From Candidatus Eiseniibacteriota bacterium (GTDB lineage Bacteria; JAFGKV01), in contig JALOPK010000003.1 in assembly GCA_025453925.1 (NCBI GenBank), forward strand, positions 1-54,052: a DNA stretch of 54,052 nucleotides, in the 5' to 3' direction. Shown piece by piece: positions 2,659 to 16,293 of this stretch. Under the pieces are notes generated by a model that did not search any database, had not been told where the DNA came from, and worked only from the letters and a program-made list of their open reading frames with translations. Both the position numbers and the translations under genes were made by a program. Each line of letters begins with the position of its first letter. The first letter of the stretch is position 1.

Positions 2659-2832
2659 GCCGTCACGCAGCCCACGGCCCCGATCGCGCTGCGGCATCCG
2701 GGCTGGCGCACCCTTTGTGTCCGGGCCTCCGGCCATGGATCCCTTGGACGTCGTCCGGGTACTCTCAACTGACGCACCCACGACACCTATCAGGCGCGCT
2801 CTACGGCCGTGAACCATACCAGGGAGCTTCCC

Positions 2833-5800
2833 ATGCGTGCACCTATACTGATGCTGGCCTTTGCCACGCTGTATGCCCATGCGGGCTACGCAATACCTCC
2901 CGCCCCCCGCTGGGTCGTGTCCGAGCGCCCTAACGGCCTTGACATCTCTCTCAGTCGGGCTCCGTGGACATCATTCCCGCTCGAAGACGGCACGCACACC
3001 GTGATCCGCGCCACCGGTGCGGCACTGACCCGGGAGGTCGGATGGCCCGAGCTTCCCGCGTACCACCTCCTGTTCGCCGTGCCGCCGGGTTGTGAACCCG
3101 TTCTGCGGTCCGAGGTCCGCACAACGGATCGACACGCGCTCCGTGCCGCCCCCGTCGGCGTGTGGAGCTCAACGGACAAAGTGCTGTCGGTCCAACGTTC
3201 CAGCAGCGTGCCGGTCGCCCTGACAGGGGAGCTGTATCCATCTCGCTGGGCCACCATCGAGCCCTGGGGAAGATTCCGGGGCGTGCAGCTCTACGCGCTG
3301 GACATCCGGCCCCTGCAGCAGCGCCTGGGCATGACGGAGATCATCGAGAACGTGGGAATGTCGGTGGAGATCTCGTGGGATCCTCCTTCTCATTCGGGCG
3401 CCCCCCCTATCGAGAGCCGCTATCTCCCCGTGCTGAAGAGCATGGTCATGAACGATGAGTTTGCGTCCAGTGTGGGCACCGTCTCCCCGGCCCGCGCACC
3501 CGTTGTGTGGGAACCACCCTATCCGGCGGTGAAGATCACTGTGCCGCCGGGTCGACCCGCGGTGATTCACCGGGAGGATCTCGCGGCCGCCGCCCCGGAT
3601 CTGGCCGCCATGTCACCCGAGGATCTCTCGTTGTCGTGGAAGGGCGCCGAGCTGCCGTGCATCGTCGAGACCAGCGGCGACACCTTCGACCGCATCTCGT
3701 TTCTGAGCCCGCCCCTGCCGGTCGAGTACGCGAATGAGACCTTTCACAATGTCATGTGGCTGGGGCGTGGCAGCGGCCTGCAGCCAATGTCCCGGCGGGA
3801 TGCAACGCCCCTGGCCTCCTCTCCCGAGATGACATCCCATCCCGCCACGCTCACCGTGGCCGAGGAACTGGAACATTCCGACTACACCAGTGCCGGCGAC
3901 GCTTTGCAGTGGTGGTGGTCGCATGTGGAGGTGAAGTCCCCGGGACAAACCAGCAGCACCAACGTGAGCGTGGGGCTTTCTTCGCTGGACAAGACCCGCC
4001 CCGTTACCCTCACCCTGACGGGGAGCGCCGACACCTGGACGAGCCACCGGCTGCGGGTGTCCATCGCAGGGCACATGCTCGCCGACACCACGTGGACCAA
4101 CAGGGGCACATTCGGAGTGACTGCCACGGTGCCCACTGAGCTGGTCTTCGTGGGCACCAACGTCGTGAAGATCGAAGCGGTCGGCCAGACCACCACCACG
4201 GACAGGATCTGGATCAAGAGCGTCACCTTCCGGTTCTTCACCGGCACGGCGGCGATAGACAGCCTCCGGTTCGCCGGCGCGACTGGCGATCCTGGGCGAT
4301 ACCGCTACCGGGTCGAGGGGTTCCGTTACCCGGAAGTCACCGTGATTGATGCCACCGACCCCGAGGATCCGGTTCAGCTCACCGGCCCCGCCACTGAGCT
4401 GATCACGGGAGGGTATGCGCTGACGTTCGGTGACTCCGCCATGCAGGCGGCTCCTCGCCAGTACGTGGTGTTCGCTCCGGATCGCGGCGCGTCCCGGCCC
4501 ACGCTGGAGTCGCGCGTCGAGGGCGTGTTGGGATCGGTAGGTGGGGCCGACTACCTCGTGGTCACGCACCCGCTTTTCGCCGACCAGGCATCCCGACTGG
4601 CATCCTATCGGGAGAGCAGAGGATTCACCCCGCTGGTCGTTGACGTGAACGAGGTATTCGACCGATTTGGATGGGGCTACCCCTCGAGCCGCGCGCTCGA
4701 CGAATTCGTGGCCTGGGCGTATGCATCGTTCGATCCGCGGCCCGGTTTCGTGGTACTCGTGGGAGACGGTTCTTCAAGGCAGCGCCACGGCAATGAAACC
4801 TCCCCCAATCTGATTCCGGTGCGACTGGTCAGTCGCGTGGCTGACGAGAACGCCTATGCCGACGTGGACGATGACCCGCACCAGCTCCCCGACGTCGCCA
4901 TCGGCCGCCTCAGCGTCCAAACCGCGGGGCAGGCAGCCGAGTTCATCGACAAGATCATCGCCGCGGAGACGCAGAGTGCGCCCTCGCCCGCCCACGCCAG
5001 GATCGCGCTCTTTGCCGATGATGCCAGCGGGAGCGCCAGCCAGCCGGGGTTCGCCTACGATTGCGAGCAGATCCTCGCCAGCGTGAGTCCGGCGTACTTC
5101 CCCGAACGGATCTATTTGAGCTACAACGGGGGCTCCAACGATGCGTGGAACGACCGCCCCACCATGCTGCACTCCCGCGCAAAGGGCGAGGCCTACTACC
5201 GGCCATGGATACTGGATACGGTTCGCGACGGCATTCTCATACTCACCTATGTCGGCCACGGCGGGGTAAACACCTGGGCCACGGAGTGGATCATCACCTC
5301 GGATGACGCGCCGGAGATGCTCACGGCACCCAACTATCCGTTCATGACCAGCTTCAGTTGCGACACCGGCCGGTTCGATGATCCGGACTATGACATCATC
5401 ATGGCCGAGCACTTTACCCGCTGGCGCGAGGGAGCGCTGGCCTTCTTCAGTTCCTCCCGTGAGAGCTACCCCTCTGACAACAGCGTCCTCTCTGCGAACC
5501 TCCACCAGGCATTGCTGGATGACGGCATTCATGAGATCGGCCTCGCCATCCAGGTGGCGAAGTTCCAGAGCGACATTTCGTATGTGTGTCGCACCTACTC
5601 GCTGCTGGGCGATCCTGCTTCCGCACTGCCCGTGCCGTCTCAGGGCGATCTGACGGTGTCGGTTGTTCCGGAGGTGGTGACCGACGGTACGACCGTGTCT
5701 GCTCTCATCACGTGGTCGGCCATCGCCACCGCGGAAGCATCCATGGAACTGGCAGACGCATTCGGGATCCCCCTGGCATCCCGGACGCAGAGCCTCTCCC

Positions 5801-6975
5801 TGCCGTGGACATCGGTGGTGACCACCGCCGAAGCACCACCCCCGGGAGAGGGCGTCTTCCGGGTGTACGGCCGAAGCGGAGCACAGGAAGCGCTCACCAT
5901 GGCGCCGTTCACCAGCCCCGTGAACATCGACACGGCGGAGGTGACGCCCGAGGGCGGAAGCGGCGGGACTGTTGCCAGCAACAACGGGAACATTCTGGTG
6001 TCGGTGCCGCCGGGATGCGTCGACGACACTACCGTCGTGCGCATCACGGCAGGTTCGGTAACGAGGGTGAGCACCCAAAGCCACATGGACGTGTGTCCCG
6101 TGCCAGGCGCGGGTACGGGACGGGCGTACCAGGTGCGCTTCGACAGCGGTGAGCTTGGTCAGGCTCCATTGTCGGTCCGGATGGCCTATGACACCAACTG
6201 GTTGCTTCCAGTGGATGTGGACAGCCTCATGGCCGCCATGTGGAACCCTGGCATAGGCCTCTGGGTCGGACTTCCCAGCACCGTCGCCGGAGGTCGGGTG
6301 GAGGCGGAGCCGCCGACCAGCGGCCAGTTCACGATACTCGTGGTCTACGATCGGGAGCCCCCGATTGTCACGCATACGGAGATTCAGGACGGTAGCGCCT
6401 GGAGGGCCTTCCAGGAGGGCGAATTCGCCGCGACGGGCGACTGGATGCGGTTCACTTTGGCCGACCACGACGGGATTCTGGGTTCCAGCGTTCGCGTTCG
6501 CATTGGTGGGCGGTCGGCGGTTGCCACGTTCGAGGCCATGGCCCAGGGCCAGCAGGAGGGCCGGGTGGTGGTCCAGCTTCCGGAGATGCCATCGGGAACG
6601 CACACGTTGGCGCTGGATGTATCCGACGTGTACGGCAACGCTGCCACCCACACCCTGACCGTCCGTCTGGGCGCCGACTTCGTCATCGCGGGGTTCGCCG
6701 CTGTACCGAATCCCTTCCCGGCCGGCACGACCCTGCGGTTTGTGCTGTCGGCCGACGCGCTCCGCGCGGTGGCGCGCGTGTACACGGTCAGCGGCCGGCT
6801 GATCCGTGAGATCGAACTTGCGAGTCCCGTCCGGGGAACGAATCTGATGGCATGGGACGGTCTGGATCAGGACGGCGACCGGATCGCCGGAGGAGTCTAT
6901 CTCGTGCGTCTTCAGGTTGACGCACAGGGTCTCGGCGCGCACGCCGAGACCAAGGTGGTGCGGAGGCCGGCGTGA
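2833..6975 (+). CDS. Large secreted peptidase C25 (gingipain-like) family protein with FlgD-Ig/T9SS-type C-terminal domain
   Basis: Signal peptide MRAPILMLAFATLYAHA. C25 core YLVVTHPLFADQASRLASYRESRGFTPLVVDV. Catalytic-dyad-like YVGHGG and FMTSFSCDTGRFD. C-terminus VPNPFPAGTTLRF...GVYLVRLQVDAQG is typical of FlgD-like sorting domains. AGGGAG lies 7 nt before the ATG at 2833. Confidence 0.85.
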   Translation: MRAPILMLAFATLYAHAGYAIPPAPRWVVSERPNGLDISLSRAPWTSFPLEDGTHTVIRATGAALTREVGWPELPAYHLLFAVPPGCEPVLRSEVRTTDRHALRAAPVGVWSSTDKVLSVQRSSSVPVALTGELYPSRWATIEPWGRFRGVQLYALDIRPLQQRLGMTEIIENVGMSVEISWDPPSHSGAPPIESRYLPVLKSMVMNDEFASSVGTVSPARAPVVWEPPYPAVKITVPPGRPAVIHREDLAAAAPDLAAMSPEDLSLSWKGAELPCIVETSGDTFDRISFLSPPLPVEYANETFHNVMWLGRGSGLQPMSRRDATPLASSPEMTSHPATLTVAEELEHSDYTSAGDALQWWWSHVEVKSPGQTSSTNVSVGLSSLDKTRPVTLTLTGSADTWTSHRLRVSIAGHMLADTTWTNRGTFGVTATVPTELVFVGTNVVKIEAVGQTTTTDRIWIKSVTFRFFTGTAAIDSLRFAGATGDPGRYRYRVEGFRYPEVTVIDATDPEDPVQLTGPATELITGGYALTFGDSAMQAAPRQYVVFAPDRGASRPTLESRVEGVLGSVGGADYLVVTHPLFADQASRLASYRESRGFTPLVVDVNEVFDRFGWGYPSSRALDEFVAWAYASFDPRPGFVVLVGDGSSRQRHGNETSPNLIPVRLVSRVADENAYADVDDDPHQLPDVAIGRLSVQTAGQAAEFIDKIIAAETQSAPSPAHARIALFADDASGSASQPGFAYDCEQILASVSPAYFPERIYLSYNGGSNDAWNDRPTMLHSRAKGEAYYRPWILDTVRDGILILTYVGHGGVNTWATEWIITSDDAPEMLTAPNYPFMTSFSCDTGRFDDPDYDIIMAEHFTRWREGALAFFSSSRESYPSDNSVLSANLHQALLDDGIHEIGLAIQVAKFQSDISYVCRTYSLLGDPASALPVPSQGDLTVSVVPEVVTDGTTVSALITWSAIATAEASMELADAFGIPLASRTQSLSLPWTSVVTTAEAPPPGEGVFRVYGRSGAQEALTMAPFTSPVNIDTAEVTPEGGSGGTVASNNGNILVSVPPGCVDDTTVVRITAGSVTRVSTQSHMDVCPVPGAGTGRAYQVRFDSGELGQAPLSVRMAYDTNWLLPVDVDSLMAAMWNPGIGLWVGLPSTVAGGRVEAEPPTSGQFTILVVYDREPPIVTHTEIQDGSAWRAFQEGEFAATGDWMRFTLADHDGILGSSVRVRIGGRSAVATFEAMAQGQQEGRVVVQLPEMPSGTHTLALDVSDVYGNAATHTLTVRLGADFVIAGFAAVPNPFPAGTTLRFVLSADALRAVARVYTVSGRLIREIELASPVRGTNLMAWDGLDQDGDRIAGGVYLVRLQVDAQGLGAHAETKVVRRPA

Positions 6976-7616
6976 TCCTTCTGCTGGTGGTGCTGGCGGC
7001 GGGCACGCTCGACACGGGACCGGCCGCGTTCACGATCGGACGGCTTAAGTATGGAGGAGGAGGCGATTGGTATGCCAACCCCTCGTCTCTCCCGAATCTG
7101 CTGGGCAGGGTGGGCGCCGACCTGAACATTGCCGTGGCGGAACGTGAGGATGTCGTGGAGCTCATGAGCCCCGATCTCTTTCGGCATCCATTTCTCCATG
7201 CGACAGGGCATGGAGAAATGCGGTTCACCGACCTTGAGGCGGGGCGTCTGCGGGGGTTTCTCCTGCGCGGAGGTTTCCTGCACGTCGATGACAACTACGG
7301 GCTCGACGCGTCGTTCCGGAGGGAGATCGCCAGAGTTTTCCCGGACAGGGCTCTCGTGCGTCTGGCCCCCGGCCACGCGATCTTCTCCCGCCCGCATGCG
7401 TTCCCCGGTGGATTGCCGAAGATCCACGAACACGACGGCGCCCCGGCACAGGCATTCGCCGTGCTGGATGGTGAGCGAGTCATGGTCCTGTACACCTTCA
7501 GTTGCGACCTGGGCGACGGCTGGGAGGATGAGCGCGTGCACAACGATCCACCCGAGCTGCGGGATGCTGCACTCAAGATGGGGGTGAACATCGTTGCCTA
7601 CGCACTCACGCACTGA
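6972..7616 (+). CDS. DUF4159 domain protein (Bat/aerotolerance-type cluster member)
   Basis: RLKYGGGGDWYANPSSLPNLL...FRHPFLHATGHGEMRF...LRGFLLRGGFLHVDDNYG matches the remembered DUF4159 signature. GTG start overlaps the stop of the C25 gene (GTGA). Confidence 0.7.
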   Translation: MILLLVVLAAGTLDTGPAAFTIGRLKYGGGGDWYANPSSLPNLLGRVGADLNIAVAEREDVVELMSPDLFRHPFLHATGHGEMRFTDLEAGRLRGFLLRGGFLHVDDNYGLDASFRREIARVFPDRALVRLAPGHAIFSRPHAFPGGLPKIHEHDGAPAQAFAVLDGERVMVLYTFSCDLGDGWEDERVHNDPPELRDAALKMGVNIVAYALTH

Positions 7617-7658
7617 CCCCCGGAGCCCACCCGGCGGATACGGGAGCTCCTGAGCATC

Positions 7659-10600
7659 ATGGCTGCCATGCCCCCCTCCCTGCTGTTGGGCAGACTCGCG
7701 CGTCTGGAACGCGCCAGGTGGCGCCGGGCAGTCCTGCGCGGCATAGTGTCGGGCGCGGGGTGGCTGCTCGTCGTGACCTCCGTCCTCAGCTCTGCCGCGG
7801 GCCTGCATCAGATCCCCGCGGAGCTGCGATGGGTGCTGTTGACGGCCGGCGGGCTTGCGCTGGTGCGGGCACTGAGAGGGGGCGCCGAGCTTGCGGGACA
7901 TAGCCCTGAGCGGACGGCGGCGGTGCTGGAGGCCCTCGCGCCGAGTCTTGAGCGCAGGATTCGGCCGGCCGTTGATCTGGCCCGCCGCCTTGTGCCTGGT
8001 ACCAGCATGGAACTCACGGAACTCGCCCAGGAGCAGGCGCTGGAACGGCTCGACGGAATCGACCCGTCCAGGCTGCTCGGCACCTGTGCGCCCCTGCCCT
8101 GGCGTCCGCTGGCGTTGGGGACGCTGCTGACGCTGTTTGCCACGGGTGCATCGGGCGGTTGCCCCATGCCATGGGCGCGCGCCTGTCTGCCGTGGCATGA
8201 CCCCCCTGCACCGCTTCCCCGGCTCCTGACCGTGGCCCCAGGGGACACCAGCGTGGTGGCGGGCTCCCCGGTGACAGTGCGGTGCCTGGTGGCATGGCTT
8301 CGAGATGAAGGAGCGGTGGTGGAAACCCGCCGTCCCGGCGAGATGGACGCGAGACTCCCCCTCGAGCCTTCGGGGACGCCCGGCCCCCGCACGACCCTCA
8401 CCGCTACCCTCCGGTTTCCCAAGGGTGGCTACCAGTACCGGGTATCGGCTGGGCCCGAGGTGAGTCCATGGTTCGCGGTCGATCAATACCACCCCCTTGA
8501 GATCACCGATGCCCGCCTGACGTATCACTTCCCGCCCTACACCGGGCTCGACAGTATGCGCCTCGTGGGCATCCCCCGGGAGATCAGGGGGCTTCGCGGT
8601 ACCCGCGTGGTGCTTGTCTTGCAGGGCAACAACCCTCTGACTGAATGCGTGTGCCGGCTGTGGTGCGAGCCGCCATGCACCATGCGTGTCGATGAGAGAA
8701 CGGCTGACGGCGAGTTCACCATCGAACGCGGTGCGGCGGCGGCGTTCGCGGTTCGGGATCGCATGGGACAACACGCCTCCATGGGGCCGGTTCCGGTCTA
8801 CATGACCGCCGATGAATCCCCGACCATCGACGCACTGATCCCGGGGTGCGACACGCTGCTGTCCCGGGATGTCAACGCGCTGGTCGGAGCGTCAGCCCAC
8901 GATGACTTCGGTCTCTCATTGGTCGCTGTGCGGTACACCATGGGGGAACGGGAGGACACGCTGGTCCTGGCGAAAGGTCGCATGGGCACCGTGGGGAGCT
9001 GGGTGCGCACCTGGGACCTTTCGCCGTTGGGCTTGCTGCCCGAGGATATCGTGAGCTACCGTTTCGAGGTAACGGACAACGACGCAGTGAGTGGCCCCAA
9101 ACGGACCGCCTCCCGGTGGTTCCGTCTCCGGTTCCCCGGTCTTGATGAGATCATGGCGTCCATCGGCCAGGAGCAGACCAGCGTCATCGACAGCCTGGAG
9201 GCGTTGTCGGGTGAAGGAAACGACCTGCGCGAGGAGTTAAGAAGCATCGCCGCGGAACTCTCTGGCGCCGACGCGGCCGACTGGGGAACCCGGGAGGATC
9301 TGAAGGCGCTGGCCGCCGAGCAGCGCGCACTGGGCGAGCGGTTGGCGCGCGCCGCCGAGGATCTGGCTCGCATCGAGCGGATGGCGGAGGAGGAGGAGCT
9401 GTTCACCGCGGAGCTTCTCGACCGAGTGGCCACCGTTCAGGAGCTCCTGCGTACTCTTCGGCTCCCTGAGTTGGACCGGGCCCTGGATGAGCTGCAGCAC
9501 GCCGTCGACACGGTGAACCCCCGGGAGCTGGAACAGGCTCTGAGTCGCCTGGCTGACCATCAGGAGCGCATCCTGGAGGGGCTCGACCGCGCAATCCAGA
9601 TGCTGAAGAGGCTCGAGGCCGCGCAGAGATTGTCCTCCCTGGCGCGAACCGCCGAGCGGATCGAGGGCGAACAGGAAAACCTGGTGGAGGCGCCAAAGAC
9701 GGGAGAGCAGGCAGGGTACGAGGCGCGGCTGGGAGAGGACCTGGCACGACTCCAGGAGGCCATGGGTGACCTCACCAAAGACATGCGGAGCGTCTCCACG
9801 GTGGTGGCCGACAGTCTCGCCGCCGCGTCGCAGCGTGTGCAGGCCTCAGGTGCACAGGAAGCGATGGAGCAGGCGGCCGGCGCGATGCGGTCGGGTTCTC
9901 CAGACGCCCCGGATCTCCAGGCGAAGGCGCTGGCCGGAGCGCAGAGGCTGGCGGCGGATCTTCAGGCCGCCGAGAGCTCCATGGGCGGGCAAGACCTGGC
10001 ACAGTTGATGGAAAACCTGGCCGCAGCGGAGCGGACGGTTGCCGATCTCGCATACGAGCAGCAGCAGCTCGCCGCACGGCCTGGGGACGCCGCGGCGGAT
10101 CACCCCCGGCAAGTGGGCGTCGCCGAGGCGCTGCGCATCCTGCGGGAGCAGACCGAAGAGACGCTGGCCAAGGGACTGGGCCCGGCAGCAGCTGACGTCC
10201 TGGGCACCATGGCCCGGGCGCAGAACGAACTCGATCGAGCTGCGGCACAAGGGTCTCGCGGTCTGAAAGACCGTGCATCCGCGCTTCGGGCGCTCAACAC
10301 CGTGTCCGGCTCACTCAGCGCCCTCAGGCAGAATCTCCAGGCGATGTCGTGCTCCGACAACTCCGGTATGGAGGAGCTCTTCGGTCTCTCCCAGGCCCAG
10401 GGGCAGCTGAACCAATCGTGTCAGTCGCTGCTGCCGCGCGCAGGCGGTCTGTCGCGGGAAATGCTCGCCTCCCTGGCCGCCCGCCAGCAATTGATCCGTG
10501 ATCAGCTGTCCCGCATCGGTCAGGGCAGGCAGGGTGATGGCAGCGTGACCGGCGATCTGGGCGGCATCGGTCGGGAGATGGAGGATCTCGTCTCCCGGCT

Positions 10601-10877
10601 TGATCAGCGCGGGCTGGACAAGGACACCGTGGACCGGCAGCGACGCGTGCTCTCCCGGCTTCTCGATGCCCAGCGATCGGTGCGGCGGCAGGGACTTGCC
10701 CGTCGCAGGATGTCCGAACCGGCCCGAACCCAGACGACCGTGCCGGGAGAAGCTCCGCCCCCGGGGGTCTCCATGCCCGTACCTGCGCCGCCGCCACGGC
10801 AGGACGATGCCTTTCCTCCCGCATACCGTGACGCGATCGAGGCATACTTCCGTGCGATTTCCCGCCCGCTTCCGTAG
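7659..10877 (+). CDS. Large membrane-anchored coiled-coil protein, DUF4175-like
   Basis: N-terminal TM helices and a long Ala/Glu/Leu/Arg-rich helical middle. C-terminus PPAYRDAIEAYFRAISR resembles the conserved DUF4175 tail. It sits directly after DUF4159. Confidence 0.6.
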   Translation: MAAMPPSLLLGRLARLERARWRRAVLRGIVSGAGWLLVVTSVLSSAAGLHQIPAELRWVLLTAGGLALVRALRGGAELAGHSPERTAAVLEALAPSLERRIRPAVDLARRLVPGTSMELTELAQEQALERLDGIDPSRLLGTCAPLPWRPLALGTLLTLFATGASGGCPMPWARACLPWHDPPAPLPRLLTVAPGDTSVVAGSPVTVRCLVAWLRDEGAVVETRRPGEMDARLPLEPSGTPGPRTTLTATLRFPKGGYQYRVSAGPEVSPWFAVDQYHPLEITDARLTYHFPPYTGLDSMRLVGIPREIRGLRGTRVVLVLQGNNPLTECVCRLWCEPPCTMRVDERTADGEFTIERGAAAAFAVRDRMGQHASMGPVPVYMTADESPTIDALIPGCDTLLSRDVNALVGASAHDDFGLSLVAVRYTMGEREDTLVLAKGRMGTVGSWVRTWDLSPLGLLPEDIVSYRFEVTDNDAVSGPKRTASRWFRLRFPGLDEIMASIGQEQTSVIDSLEALSGEGNDLREELRSIAAELSGADAADWGTREDLKALAAEQRALGERLARAAEDLARIERMAEEEELFTAELLDRVATVQELLRTLRLPELDRALDELQHAVDTVNPRELEQALSRLADHQERILEGLDRAIQMLKRLEAAQRLSSLARTAERIEGEQENLVEAPKTGEQAGYEARLGEDLARLQEAMGDLTKDMRSVSTVVADSLAAASQRVQASGAQEAMEQAAGAMRSGSPDAPDLQAKALAGAQRLAADLQAAESSMGGQDLAQLMENLAAAERTVADLAYEQQQLAARPGDAAADHPRQVGVAEALRILREQTEETLAKGLGPAAADVLGTMARAQNELDRAAAQGSRGLKDRASALRALNTVSGSLSALRQNLQAMSCSDNSGMEELFGLSQAQGQLNQSCQSLLPRAGGLSREMLASLAARQQLIRDQLSRIGQGRQGDGSVTGDLGGIGREMEDLVSRLDQRGLDKDTVDRQRRVLSRLLDAQRSVRRQGLARRRMSEPARTQTTVPGEAPPPGVSMPVPAPPPRQDDAFPPAYRDAIEAYFRAISRPLP

Positions 10878-12078
10878 CCTCGTCGCGGGGGTGTTCGCGG
10901 CGTGCAGCGCCGCGCTGGCAGACGATCCACCCGGTGCGGCACTGCCCGACCCGGTCGCGATCGGCGTCGTCCGGCAGTCGCTCACCACCGCGCTCCAGCA
11001 TGACGACGTCGAAGCCGCCGCGGCGGCTGTGCTGGCCCTCCTGCGGCGAGGCATGGAGCCTGCCAACGTGGCGATGACCACCCTCTCGAGCCTCTCGCCG
11101 AGGGTCTCTGATACCCTTCGAGAGACCTTGATCGACTCCCGTGCGTCCGGCGTCGCCGAGGTCGTCATGCTACTCGCCGCGGGGAGTGGCGACTGGTCCG
11201 CGGTCGACTCGCTGTCCCGGTCCTTCTCCGGCCGGCCGGTGAGCGTGGCAACCCTCCAGACCGTGGCGGGCCAGGCAGAGGAGGCGGGGCAGTTCCCGGT
11301 TGCCGCGTGGGCATACTCCCGGCTGAGGGGAGTCGGACAGATGTGGGCAGAGCACGCCACGCTTCCTTTGGTGGAGGCGCTGATCGCGTCCGGGCGACGG
11401 GATGAGGCTGCCGTCCTTCTCGACAGCCTCATGGGCGGCGAAACGCCGCCGAACTTCCGAACTCGCGCCGCGGTGCTGCGCGCTAGAATCCTCCTCATGC
11501 AGGGAGACGAAACGAGGGCGCTCGATTGGCTGGACCGGGTACCGAGGAACGCGCCGGAACGCGCCGAGGCGGAGCTCTGGGCTGCTCTCATCCGTTTCAG
11601 CCACCATGGAAACGACTCGTTGGCACGAATCCTGGAGGCCGCGGCGCGCCTCCTGCCTGGATCACCGGCCGCCGCGGCCGCGTACGGCGCCGCGCAGCTC
11701 ACCGCTTGCTTTCCCTCCGACATCCGGCTTCGGCAGAAGGCCCTCCATAGCCTGCAGCTCGAACTCAGGGAGCAGTACGAGGCAGCCGCAGACGGCTACC
11801 GGGAGGTTCGCAAAGCGTCCCGGGAGACGGCCGCGGTCCGGTGGGGAATCAGAGAGGCTCGTTGCTGGGAACGCGCGGGGAGAATCGCCTCCGCGCTGGA
11901 AACCTGGGCCAGCCTTGACAGCTCGGGAGATGACGGCGCTGTCGTGCTGATCGGTACCGGTGACTGCCTGGCGACGATCGGCATGCCCGACAGCGCGCGA
12001 GCGTGCTACATGGCGGTCCTTGACCGGTTCCCCGAGAGCGCCCATGCAGGCCAGGCTCGCAGCCGGCTCCTCCAGTGA
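10807..12078 (+). CDS. TPR-like repeat protein, probably secreted
   Basis: Helical repeat composition. YbgF/TPR-like C-terminus (CYMAVLDRFPESAHAGQARSRL). Signal-like FRSLVAGVFAACSAALA. Start is uncertain: ATG 10807 or GTG 10852, both overlapping the end of the previous gene. Confidence 0.55.
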   Translation: MPFLPHTVTRSRHTSVRFPARFRSLVAGVFAACSAALADDPPGAALPDPVAIGVVRQSLTTALQHDDVEAAAAAVLALLRRGMEPANVAMTTLSSLSPRVSDTLRETLIDSRASGVAEVVMLLAAGSGDWSAVDSLSRSFSGRPVSVATLQTVAGQAEEAGQFPVAAWAYSRLRGVGQMWAEHATLPLVEALIASGRRDEAAVLLDSLMGGETPPNFRTRAAVLRARILLMQGDETRALDWLDRVPRNAPERAEAELWAALIRFSHHGNDSLARILEAAARLLPGSPAAAAAYGAAQLTACFPSDIRLRQKALHSLQLELREQYEAAADGYREVRKASRETAAVRWGIREARCWERAGRIASALETWASLDSSGDDGAVVLIGTGDCLATIGMPDSARACYMAVLDRFPESAHAGQARSRLLQ

Positions 12079-12908
12079 CCACGCCGATCATCATCTCCGC
12101 CTCACGCCGAACCGATATGCCGCGGTTTCACCTGGACGTCCTGACCGACGGCCTCCGGCGGCGGCGGTTCGCCTGGCATCACCCGTTCAATGGCCGGCTC
12201 ATGGAGCTGGCGTTGCCGGTCGAGCAGAAAGCTGTGCTGGTGCTCTGGTCAAAGGACTTCGACCGGTTTCTCGAGAACCGCTCGGCGTTCGAGGGCTGGC
12301 CGCTCTTCTTCCATTTCACCATCAACACTCCCCTCACCCTCCTGGAGCCCGACCTGCCGCCCCTGCGCCAGCGCTTGTGCCAACTGGAGCAGCTTGCCTC
12401 TCTCTACAGTCCGGAGGCGGTTCGCTGGCGGTTCGATCCCATTGTGTGCTGGGAGTCGGGGGGCCAGGCCCACGACAACCTCCGCGGGCTCGAGGCGATC
12501 GCACCTGATGTCGCCGCGGCGGGCGTCAAGGATGTCACCGTCTCCTTCATGGATCACTACCGGAAGATCGACAGGAGGTTGGCCGACCGGCCGTTGACGT
12601 TCCGCACTCCGTCCCCCCAGGAACAGGTGGAGCTGTTCGCCCCGTGGGCGGCTGTGCTCACTGAACTCAAGTTCACCGTTCACACGTGTTGCGAGCCCGT
12701 CCTGGCTTCGGGAATCCAGGGGGTGCGGCCGGGCAGGTGCATCGATGCGGACCTGCTGTCGCGCCTCACGGGGATGGTTGTGGAGGCGAAGGATGACCTG
12801 GGGCAACGCAGGGATCACGGCTGTCTCTGCCATCGCAGCATCGACATCGGGTGCTACGCCCATCACCGCTGTCGCGGCCAATGCCTGTACTGCTACGCGA
12901 GGCCGTGA
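12075..12908 (+). CDS. DUF1848 domain protein
   Basis: N-terminus IIISASRRTDMPRFH and C-terminal Cys cluster CLCHRSIDIGCYAHHRCRGQCLYCYA match DUF1848. Start overlaps the upstream stop (GTGA). Confidence 0.75.
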   Translation: MTTPIIISASRRTDMPRFHLDVLTDGLRRRRFAWHHPFNGRLMELALPVEQKAVLVLWSKDFDRFLENRSAFEGWPLFFHFTINTPLTLLEPDLPPLRQRLCQLEQLASLYSPEAVRWRFDPIVCWESGGQAHDNLRGLEAIAPDVAAAGVKDVTVSFMDHYRKIDRRLADRPLTFRTPSPQEQVELFAPWAAVLTELKFTVHTCCEPVLASGIQGVRPGRCIDADLLSRLTGMVVEAKDDLGQRRDHGCLCHRSIDIGCYAHHRCRGQCLYCYARP

Positions 12909-14320: not shown

Positions 14321-14613
14321 GCCTGAACCTCCTGGCAAGGGTCGAGCACGTTTCGCCACGAGAAACCCGTGGACACGAATCAAGGTTGGCGGAGGACGCC
14401 GAACATGTCAAGATACGGACACACGGCACCGGAGCCTCGACGATCGGAGCGGAAACCGGAGACCATTGGAGGGATGTGCCGTTCGCGGTGGGAGAACCCT
14501 GAGCTGCTGCGCGTCCCCTCGCCTTCCCCTGGAGACGGGAGTCCCGCGCTCGCAGTACTCTGGAATGATGATCGGGCAACACGTCCGGAATCGGATCGAT
14601 TGCCCGTCAGGTC

Positions 14614-14650
14614 CATCACGATGCGTGGCGCATGCGCCGCGCACGTGATG
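14614..14650. repeat. 37-nt imperfect palindrome / long hairpin inside the non-coding gap upstream of cmr1
   Basis: CATCACG...CGTGATG outer arms enclose the perfect 12-nt palindrome GGCGCATGCGCC, extended by G-C and G-U pairs. About 18 bp are paired in total, with a one-nt offset bulge. Confidence 0.6.
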
Positions 14651-15174
14651 CCCGCGATTCCGGTGGACGGCCCGGCGCGGAGGAGCAGGGGGACTCGCTT
14701 GTCTGGGTGCGCGCGGTTGTGAACCCCGCGCGGTACCGGCCTGGCCGCTTGCCGGAAATGTCGGCTTCGGTCTTGCGCCGCCGGGGAGTATGCCCCAACC
14801 TGTCATGGTTTGCGACGACGGCAGGTCTGCCGGCGCCGCGCAACGGAGTTCGTTACTGCTTGACGTCCGAAGGTGAATCGAGTTCCTCATGCCGATTCTC
14901 CCGTCGATCATGAGCCCCGTGGCTGTCGGGTCGGATGCCCGGTGCGGTGCATGCACGATAGCACCGAGAGCGCCTACCTACCGTGGATGTCCTGACAGTG
15001 CGGTCGTCATGGCGGAGAGGAGTCGGTGAACTATGACATCGCGGCCGCCTGACCCTCGCGCGCGAGCCGGAGCCGCGCGGCCTCCTTCCATCAATGGGCT
15101 GGGCCATGTGTCCGGCGCCTCCTGTTCCCACTTCGGTGGGGAGGGGCCGGCGCGGTCAAGCTGAGGTGACCTGA

Positions 15175-16293
15175 ATGTCTTTCAAGAGACGATCGAAAGG
15201 GCAGGGTTTGCATCATCGTCAGGGCTCTTCGAAGGGGGGCCATTCCTCCCGGAGAGGAGTAGCCACACGCAGGGAGGCGATTCTCGATCTCATGTTCGTC
15301 ACCCCGGCGTTTGTCACGGGCACGGGAGAACACGCTGCCCCCGTCGGGATTTCCACCATACGCGAGCTCCTGCGGTGGTGGTATCGCGCTCTGGTGGGTC
15401 ATGAGGCCGTTCTGGGGCTTGTGGACGTTGAGCAAGCGGAGGCAGGAGTTTTCGGAAGTCCCCGGCTCAAGATCCGTTCACCGTTGCAGATTCAGGTCGT
15501 CCCCGGGACCTCCTTCGGCGTGATTCCCGCAGGGTCGCCGGCTCCGAGTAGCGGAATCATCCTGGACACGACCCCCAAGCTGGACAGCATTCACTATCTG
15601 GGGAGCGGGCCGGTGGGCCCCGTGGCCCGTCGGGAGTGCGATGATCACGGCGTCGCAAATGAAGCGGCGTTCAACGATCCCGCGACCGGCAAGGCGAGAC
15701 GCGGACAGATCCTCCGGCAGCCGGCCATCGCCGCGGGCACCACGTTTACCATCCACCTGAGCTGGAATGACGGCGCCTTGGACGATCGCCAGCAGGAAGA
15801 CCTGATTCGTGCAGCCGCGTCCTTGGTCGCGCTGGGAGGAATCGGCTCCCGAAGCAAGAAGGGATTCGGAGCGTTGGCCGGTGCGATCGATGCGGCGGAG
15901 ATCCCCGAAGCTCGGTCGTGGTGGGAGTCGCAAACCTACGGGATCCTTCACGGTCCGACCCTCTCGGCAACGGCGGGTTTCCCCTCATTCCCATGCCTGG
16001 CGTATGGGATCATACGGCCGGATCCGGTCGTCTCGTCCACGTGGGAGCATGCGATGGGAAGGCTTGGCCAACTCTATCTGGCCATCCGACCGCGCGGGGC
16101 CGCGGCCTGGATCGGGGGCTCGGCCCACCCGAAGCGGGATGCGTCCGTGCTCTTTTCGGTCTTGTCCGAGGAGGAGGGCTTCCGGGGGGTGGCGACGCTG
16201 CTTCCCTACGTGCAGCCAGGCGAGGAGGGAGCCCGTGACCTCCGTGACTACGTGACGGCTTTCAAGGAGTTCTGCTGGCCAGAAGAGGGCTGA
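15175..16293 (+). CDS. cmr1: Solitary Cmr1-family RAMP protein (type III CRISPR-associated fold) with a basic N-terminal tail
   Basis: Three matches to remembered P. furiosus Cmr1. (1) FVTPAFVTGTGE...IRELLRWWYRALVG...EAGVFGS...SPLQIQVVPG matches IKGAMRWWFRALAG...ENQVFGS...SRVKISVTP. (2) Glycine-rich RAMP loop LVALGGIGSRSKKGFGAL matches LVSLGSVGFRSRRGTGSM. (3) C-terminal ASVLFSV...GFRGVATLL resembles ASPLWFGV. GAGGTGA lies 6 nt before the ATG. Confidence 0.8.
   Translation: MSFKRRSKGQGLHHRQGSSKGGHSSRRGVATRREAILDLMFVTPAFVTGTGEHAAPVGISTIRELLRWWYRALVGHEAVLGLVDVEQAEAGVFGSPRLKIRSPLQIQVVPGTSFGVIPAGSPAPSSGIILDTTPKLDSIHYLGSGPVGPVARRECDDHGVANEAAFNDPATGKARRGQILRQPAIAAGTTFTIHLSWNDGALDDRQQEDLIRAAASLVALGGIGSRSKKGFGALAGAIDAAEIPEARSWWESQTYGILHGPTLSATAGFPSFPCLAYGIIRPDPVVSSTWEHAMGRLGQLYLAIRPRGAAAWIGGSAHPKRDASVLFSVLSEEEGFRGVATLLPYVQPGEEGARDLRDYVTAFKEFCWPEEG

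Follow-up and report, generated by a model that had tools for sequence, protein, structure and literature searches.

RAMP proteins (Cas5, Cas6 and Cas7) are generally regarded as parts of multi-subunit CRISPR effectors. The departures that are known either keep several Cas partners, as in HRAMP, CAST and type IV systems, or are pre-CRISPR relatives, as was recently proposed for VIPR, and we know of no earlier documented case in which an individual CRISPR effector RAMP subunit was exapted outside a Cas module. The subject of this study is a cmr1-like gene, coding for a protein of 372 amino acids (aa), that lies on a 54,052-nt contig of a metagenome-assembled genome (MAG) labelled Candidatus Eisenbacteria; this whole stretch of DNA is called the window in what follows. 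With modest confidence we read it as a Cmr1 derivative, now exapted and free-standing: its departure from the type III-B operon would date to the ancestor of a small Eisenbacteria/Fermentibacteria-related lineage, where it has since persisted as a single gene with a modified function.

Two groups of described systems come closest. Vipr is a solo RAMP protein flanked by YNNGG-repeat vrRNAs that lie in long intergenic regions; it consists of a single RRM, branches early and outside Cas5, Cas6 and Cas7, is mostly phage-borne or proviral and is paired with a vap gene, while the VIPR non-coding RNA is built of 9–16 tandem YNNGG units (GGY/NN repeats) (bioRxiv 10.64898/2026.04.26.720920). The locus in the window resembles it in that a RAMP-fold protein without other cas genes is found beside long intergenic DNA, but the protein described here has two domains, derives from Cmr1 and lies in a chromosomal setting of housekeeping genes, and YNNGG repeats are absent. 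The second group, haloarchaeal HRAMP and the STAND-associated type I derivatives, comprises exapted Class 1 modules without adaptation genes and thus likewise places RAMPs outside canonical CRISPR-Cas function; those modules, however, retain Cas5 and Cas7 together with nucleases or NTPases (PMC8730458), whereas the cmr1-like gene encodes a single RAMP protein and stands alone. In the literature on solitary, stand-alone or exapted Cmr1 and RAMP proteins we found no description of a clade of this kind.

The obvious point of reference is canonical Cmr1, for which structures have been solved from A. fulgidus (4L6U and 9L7C) and P. furiosus (4W8X). The protein encoded in the window shares with it the two-RAMP architecture, the TPxF strand, the R-W-W-x-R of helix alpha1 and the glycine-rich loop; profile and fold matches cover the full core, and in the tree the protein is nested beside a canonical bacterial Cmr1 subfamily. 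It differs from canonical Cmr1 in having no cmr2-6, cas6, cas1/2 or array alongside, in having replaced the alpha1 glycine by Glu or Asp, in having lost a Glu and an Arg and altered the RRAS motif, in the isoelectric point (pI) of its core (5.8 against about 9.9) and in carrying an extra basic tail of about 39 aa. Those Cmr1 proteins of type III-B loci that are its sisters (L007, L008, L010, L011/L012, L004 and L017) have the same insertion and resemble it in length and C-terminal motifs, but they are strongly basic, lack an N-terminal tail and have the Gly, Glu and Arg invariants intact. The features of the gene are the following, the solo clade being the group of close homologues described below.

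15163 to 15168, forward strand: Shine-Dalgarno sequence GAGGTG, read directly, 6 nt ahead of the long-form ATG
15175 to 16293, forward strand: cmr1-like gene, long form of 372 aa, an open reading frame (ORF) with an ATG start, family matches and an AlphaFold2 model
15175 to 15291, forward strand: N-terminal basic disordered tail, aa 1–39, a frame open and basic throughout the solo clade, with low predicted local distance difference test (pLDDT) scores
15292 to 15894, forward strand: first RAMP (RRM-like) domain, about aa 40–240, from the Pfam RAMPs match, the alignment and the secondary structure of the model
15358 to 15390, forward strand: helix alpha1 nucleotide-binding motif I62-R-E64-L-L-R67-W68-W69-Y-R71-A, from a motif scan (PMC5737701)
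15832 to 15876, forward strand: glycine-rich RAMP loop L220-GGIGSRSKKGFGAL-234, kept, from invariant columns
15895 to 16290, forward strand: second (C-terminal) RAMP domain, about aa 241–372, from the PDB Cmr1 alignments, the column comparison and the model

The 372-aa product is a genuine two-domain (two-RAMP) Cmr1 homologue. It matches Pfam RAMPs (PF03787) over residues 42–234 with 34.2 bits against a cut-off of 22.1, NCBIfam TIGR01894 (Cmr1) with 37.5 bits against a cut-off of 28.65, and three PADLOC Cmr1 models down to 2e-16. In both halves of the protein a profile of the family aligns with Cmr1 chains of known structure (4l6u at 6.3e-28, 4w8x at 1.5e-24), and the second RAMP domain is supported by these PDB alignments over profile positions 139–319. 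The AlphaFold2 model, for which 19 sequences served as input, reaches a pLDDT of 85.8 and a predicted template modelling (pTM) score of 0.84, with only the first ~24 residues disordered. When it was compared with the PDB by Foldseek, the four best matches were Cmr1 chains, namely 9l7c_A (1.2e-14; template modelling score 0.54 on the query and 0.61 on the target), 4l6u twice and 4w8x, followed by the Cmr1 of Cmr-beta, with Csm3/Cas7 proteins well below. These results bear out a sequence-only reading of the same DNA, which had given the ORF as 15175–16293 on the forward strand with 372 aa and a good Shine-Dalgarno sequence, had seen a Cmr1 match along the full length of the product and had proposed profile searches with PF03787 and TIGR01894 as well as structure prediction as checks; the four sequence blocks on which it relied, the TPAF strand, IRELLRWWYRALVG...VFGS, LGGIGSRSKKGFGAL and the C-terminal second RAMP, are all found in the product. 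The family profile also matches a PDB entry named 'Cmr1-MntA' (9z7q) at 3e-22. This 438-aa chain was solved in 9z7q, 9z7v and 9z7x, and its name implies Cmr1 joined to MntA, presumably the nucleotidyltransferase.

The surroundings of the gene hold none of the genes that accompany a type III-B effector. ORFs whose GC content at third codon positions (GC3) is of the coding type were chosen across the window, and about 40 of them were scanned against Pfam without a match to a Cas family; PADLOC and NCBIfam found nothing cas-like among the unannotated neighbours, and there are no tandem repeats or CRISPR-like direct repeats in the 54 kb. By context, a type III-B locus would be recognised from cas10/cmr2, cmr3-6, cas6, cas1/2 or an array nearby, and the window contains none of them, in agreement with the earlier view that CRISPR-Cas context is missing. 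Rfam families and tRNAs were not found in the window either. Upstream lie genes for a rhodanese/MBL protein, a nitroreductase, a C25 peptidase, a DUF4159 protein, a 1072-aa protein of no known family, a TPR protein, a DUF1848 protein, MntP and a divergent GyrI-like protein. The downstream side begins with a convergent gene for a weakly matching alpha/alpha-toroid protein and continues with unknowns, the alpha and beta subunits of PheRS, an amine oxidase and a radical SAM enzyme, further on followed by an ECF sigma factor, HtrA, PRPP synthase, the F1Fo ATP synthase operon, arginine decarboxylase and a NiFe hydrogenase; peptidases, too, are among the scanned ORFs. Flanked by a divergent gene on the upstream side and a convergent one downstream, the cmr1-like gene is monocistronic.

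The solitary state is not an accident of the window contig. Close homologues are few among 5.8 billion proteins (P0002–P0006, 56–70% identity), and they come from MAGs labelled Eisenbacteria or Fermentibacteria and from metagenome contigs. Together with the window they form the solo clade, which comprises six sequences on as many contigs and about four, at most five, lineages. The longest contig besides the window, L003 (= L002; JAFGKV010000057), measures 37.6 kb and comes from a MAG that carries the label Candidatus Fermentibacteria (isolate Zod_Metabat.355); its homologue is MBN1423625.1, and the 21 kb read on either side of this gene contain no cas gene and no array. L013 and L016 come from one organism, together span about 4.7 kb at 67% identity and agree with the window in downstream gene order, the 3.5-kb contig L014 shares upstream synteny with L003, and the 2.3-kb contig L015 carries the cmr1-like gene alone; no cas neighbour was seen on the 3.5 kb and 2.3 kb of the last two. 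Hence the whole small clade is solitary where context is visible, that is, on contigs of 54, 37.6, about 4.7, 3.5 and 2.3 kb, and collecting the homologues, as had been suggested, found the cas-free state in all of them. The conserved neighbourhood with a toroid-repeat protein that had been expected at the same time amounts to lineage-specific synteny: the toroid gene adjoins the cmr1-like gene only in the closest relative and was rejected as a conserved partner. The genes for a 144-aa membrane protein and a 390-aa coiled-coil protein that lie upstream in L003 and L014 were considered for the same role and have no counterpart in the window. A viral origin was rejected as well, as IMG/VR holds no relatives and BFVD gave no significant fold match.

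All six loci have in common an open in-frame N-terminal extension of 24–40 residues that contains 7–15 Lys and Arg, almost no acidic residues and has a pI of 12. In the window there are 10 Lys and Arg and no Asp or Glu among the first 33 aa, and residues 1–24 have a pLDDT below 50. The TPxF strand, which starts at residues 10–15 in most of the 157 non-clade Cmr1 representatives used for comparison, starts at 42–43 in the clade (43 in the window). NCBI and JGI place the start of the gene at Met40 (15292), so that the product has 333 aa (MCU0610210.1) and the basic tail is cut off, and both name it 'type III-B CRISPR module RAMP protein Cmr1'; the 372-aa form has no exact-sequence record, the database holding the 333-aa call instead. 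The long form is nevertheless favoured because the Shine-Dalgarno sequence is conserved and the basic frame is open in all relatives: GAGGTG precedes the long-form ATG by 6–8 nt in three lineages (the window, L013/L016 and L015), and the PGAP call for the Fermentibacteria homologue retains a basic tail of 24 aa, MKRRRKPSQRGRTTKTRSS.... The tail evolves faster than the core, but in it the proportion of nonsynonymous differences (pN) is still lower than that of synonymous ones (pS), at 0.34 against 0.80 between the window and L013. A Tat or Sec signal, as might be read from the motif 'TRRE', was rejected; the segment after the two arginines is the first RAMP beta-strand with acidic residues, and the Fermentibacteria lineage lacks the pair. 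The extra basic tail, already remarked upon from the sequence, is thus a clade-specific and conserved acquisition, open and basic in six loci and preceded by a Shine-Dalgarno sequence in three lineages.

The position of the clade among Cmr1 proteins was drawn from a full HMMER scan of 1.84 billion representatives, which returned 7049 Cmr1 relatives. Nearest to the clade stands a group of about 26 representatives with 31–38% identity to the window product, which have in common with it a subfamily-specific insertion (YLxxGPV...FNDxxG(R/K)); the alignment places this insertion at aa ~120–180 of the first RAMP domain. Neighbour-joining recovers the solo clade as a monophyletic group that has a stem branch of 0.159 and stands beside this sister subfamily; identity is 34% between solo and sister proteins against 40% within the sisters. 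Contexts were read for six of the nearest non-clade relatives, some of which are slightly more distant than the group of ~26, and all six lie in type III-B loci. L007, L008, L010 and L011/L012 are cmr2-3-4-5-6-cmr1 operons in which cmr1 comes last and its start overlaps the end of cmr6, L004 contains cas6, cmr2, cmr3, a RAMP-containing ORF and a gene for a TPR/AEP-TOTE protein, and in L017, the nearest neighbour in the tree, the TPR/AEP-TOTE gene of the sister operons comes after cmr1. The order of the sister loci is cas6-cmr2-cmr3-cmr4-cmr5-cmr6-cmr1, often with an unknown gene, the TPR/AEP-TOTE gene and cas1-cas2 after it.

A feature of the sister loci in its own right is the segment behind cmr1 (L007:11039-16075; L011:11062-16209; L004:10525-14092; L017:1261-2529). 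It encodes a protein of ~570 aa without a Pfam match and then one of ~650 aa with TPR and AEP-TOTE (PF22548, primase-like) domains; in L007 and L011/L012 cas1-cas2 come next, and in L017 only the TPR/AEP-TOTE homologue directly follows cmr1. A primase-like insertion recurs between the effector and adaptation modules of these loci.

Compared with the 157 non-clade representatives, the core of the solo proteins has been rewritten at positions that are otherwise nearly invariant. The alpha1 motif I-x-G-x-x-R-W-(W/F)-x-R has Glu or Asp in place of Gly in 6/6 clade members, whereas the glycine is kept in 156 of the 157 others and replaced by Asn in one. The clade retains the Ile, both Arg and both aromatic residues (I62, R67, W68, W69 and R71 in the window), so that the window product departs from the invariant motif at the Gly position alone (Glu64). 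The motif aligns with I52, G54, R57, W58, F59 and R61 of the Cmr1alpha of S. islandicus, Glu64 taking the place of G54. In that protein G54 is one of four invariant residues, and the I52A/G54A/R57A/R61A mutant largely leaves the complex, while W58 and F59 mediate target-RNA capture (PMC5737701). A Glu and an Arg just ahead of alpha1 (conserved to 95% and 91%, respectively) are also lost in the clade, R320, otherwise conserved to 100%, has become Lys, and in the second RAMP the canonical RRAS(P/S) reads KRD(A/S)S, with Asp or Glu at the motif Ala. The net charge of the solo core lies between -6 and +6, against +4 to +24 in the sisters (mostly +10 to +21), a loss of 10–20 net positive charges; the core pI is 5.78 in the window, with medians of 9.9 in the sisters and 9.7 in 128 other representatives. 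The loop residues G221, G222, G224, R226 and G232, on the other hand, are invariant in solo and canonical clades alike. The lost near-invariant residues and the lost core charge are new evidence that points towards the proposed exaptation of the gene.

The cmr1-like gene is under purifying selection. Between clade members the ratio of nonsynonymous to synonymous substitution rates (dN/dS, by the Nei-Gojobori method) is 0.15–0.30, and dS is saturated or nearly so; L003 and L014, the pair furthest from saturation, have a dS of 0.615 and a dN of 0.090. Given these ratios the gene is not a decaying remnant. The notion of an exapted RAMP, first put forward from the sequence, is partly supported, namely by the Cmr1 identity, the solitary clade, purifying selection, the tail and the type III-B setting of the sisters, but not in the part that assumed a conserved neighbourhood.

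As judged from its sequence, the free-standing Cmr1 derivative probably still binds nucleic acid. The retained alpha1 I-x-x-x-x-R-W-W-x-R and the glycine-rich loop may still form the single-stranded nucleotide-binding groove of Cmr1, and the Arg/Lys-rich disordered tail could supply the electrostatic affinity that the near-neutral to acidic core has given up, so that the lone protein would bind RNA or another single-stranded nucleic acid. The loss of the Gly, the Glu, the Arg and 10–20 charges fits a release from the constraint of docking to the crRNA-target duplex (crRNA, CRISPR RNA) beside Cmr6 and Cmr4. Candidate cellular roles would be those of an RNA chaperone, a regulator or other. We propose, tentatively, that Cmr1 was here domesticated as a single-gene nucleic-acid-binding protein that employs groove and Arg-rich tail in a non-CRISPR function of its host, in a lineage perhaps without type III CRISPR-Cas. 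Such a protein might recognise a specific cellular RNA, for example the hairpin-bearing 5' region of its own mRNA.

That 5' region belongs to a long intergenic stretch.

14384 to 15174, no strand assigned: upstream intergenic region, 791 nt, examined by GC3 screen, blastn, promoter/terminator, repeat and Rfam scans

The GC3 screen detected no gene in it, and neither an RNA family nor a repeat was found; at a permissive threshold Rfam gave a sub-threshold snoRNA match, and promoter or terminator signals did not rise above those of shuffled sequences. When the upstream regions of the lineages were compared by blastn and k-mers, a single 19-nt match at chance level resulted, so the long leader that had been counted as part of a conserved neighbourhood shows no sequence conservation across lineages, and a conserved partner RNA or leader was rejected. 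At the 3' end of the region in the window, positions 15097–15162 form a stem-loop with a fold z-score of -2.2. Strong stem-loops just 5' of the ribosome-binding site of the cmr1-like gene are present in 3/4 lineages, with unrelated sequences (window 15097-15162, L016 ~718-770 and L003 ~9896-9923; z-scores -2.2, -2.5 and -3.9, respectively). The stem-loop of L003 and L014 is an AT-rich perfect palindrome, GGAGCTATTCTAC...GTAGAATAGCTCC, within a GC-rich genome, and might serve as an operator or belong to a promoter.

Several points weigh against an exapted single-gene protein. Loci of type III frequently occur in separate pieces, and no other Cmr subunit is bound as loosely as Cmr1, so that the protein may act in trans with a remote cmr2-6 operon; 54 kb and 37.6 kb of two genomes are visible. 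With six sequences from about four lineages, most of them on short contigs from metagenomes, the clade is very small, so that 'always solitary' rests on two long contigs and some short ones, and these two, being syntenic, do not sample context independently. The loss of core charge could equally mean that the core binds nucleic acid more weakly, RNA binding being deduced from homology. Neither a function-revealing or conserved neighbour nor a partner RNA emerged from the clade contigs and the upstream comparisons.

These points lead to the alternative that survives best, a displaced but otherwise normal type III-B subunit that still becomes part of a Cmr2-6/crRNA complex whose genes lie in another part of the genome, which we regard as unlikely. 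It agrees with the biochemistry of the S. islandicus complex, in which Cmr1 is held through the crRNA and not through protein contacts and a core of Cmr2-6 remains stable and active in its absence (PMC5737701), with the limited portion of the two genomes that can be seen, and with the retention of the alpha1 R-W-W-x-R and of the G-rich loop. However, the replacement of the alpha1 Gly, the disappearance of the conserved Glu and Arg and the loss of 10–20 core charges are unexpected for a protein that docks to the crRNA-target duplex, and the gain of a basic tail has no parallel in canonical Cmr1. Moreover, the solitary position has been conserved across lineages whose synonymous sites are saturated, while cmr1 lies within the type III-B locus in 6/6 sister contexts. 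A search with a Cmr4 profile returned no Eisenbacteria or Fermentibacteria names among the best 120 of 4198 matches, few of which carry organism names, and thus says nothing either way.

A second alternative, which we hold to be improbable, makes the cmr1-like gene part of an unrecognised multi-gene system, possibly related to defence, together with the 1072-aa coiled-coil, TPR and DUF1848 genes. On both long contigs a C25 peptidase-DUF4159-1072aa-TPR-DUF1848 block lies beside the cmr1-like gene, at a distance from the DUF1848 gene of 2.3 kb in the window and 0.8 kb in L003, and the DUF1848 protein (window 12075-12908, forward strand) matches the PADLOC model 'RTasDUF1848' at 6e-40. This model describes an accessory of defence-associated reverse transcriptases; the Pfam and PADLOC scans revealed neither a reverse transcriptase nor another defence gene near the DUF1848 and cmr1-like genes. 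Against such a system, the orientation of the cmr1-like gene with respect to the block is opposite in the two lineages, the genes in between are unrelated and differ (MntP and GyrI-like in the window, OmdA/DUF8412 in L003), and the block runs on into the C25 peptidase and DUF4159 genes in both genomes, as in general chromosomal synteny. The shared block, as we read it, reflects a solitary gene that has been passed on vertically at a single chromosomal site and is not an operon. The block itself is collinear at 48–80% aa identity between window 2809-12908 (forward strand) and L003 11878-21077 (reverse strand) and contains a 1388-aa C25 peptidase with a FlgD-Ig tail, the DUF4159 protein, the 1072-aa family-less coiled-coil protein, the TPR protein and the DUF1848 protein; its conservation between MAGs labelled Eisenbacteria and Fermentibacteria suggests a closer relationship of the two genomes than the labels would indicate.

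Genomes commonly contain orphan cas genes that remain after a locus has decayed, and for the present gene no partner or function is evident, as would suit a functionless remnant of a type III-B locus on its way to becoming a pseudogene. Isolated loci of this sort have been discussed (PMC5294841). For the solo clade such an origin is very improbable: the ORFs are full-length and intact on six contigs from about four lineages, dN/dS is low at or near saturation of dS, 25 columns including the G-rich loop are invariant in the clade and its distant relatives, the Shine-Dalgarno sequence is conserved, and the GC3 of the gene is of the coding type like that of its neighbours.

Scarcely credible is, finally, a minimal RNA-guided system like VIPR, in which the solo RAMP would use a tandem-repeat guide RNA from the flanking intergenic region and for which the 791 nt upstream of the gene might seem suited, for YNNGG runs of at least 4 units are absent from both strands of the window, L003 and L013–L016, there are no tandem or direct repeats, upstream conservation or conserved adjacent partner gene, the protein has two RAMP domains nested inside CRISPR Cmr1 where Vipr is a single RRM that branches before all CRISPR RAMPs, and the setting is a housekeeping chromosomal one without viral relatives by sequence or fold, so that this identity is largely refuted.

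If the gene is indeed an exapted Cmr1, the automated Cmr1 annotation by NCBI and JGI would wrongly score the genomes of the solo clade as carriers of type III-B components. The case would have no documented precedent among single RAMP subunits of CRISPR effectors exapted outside a Cas module, it would provide a compact natural scaffold for studying what one Cas7-like module binds alone, and it would mean that a lone effector subunit can take on other tasks in the cell.

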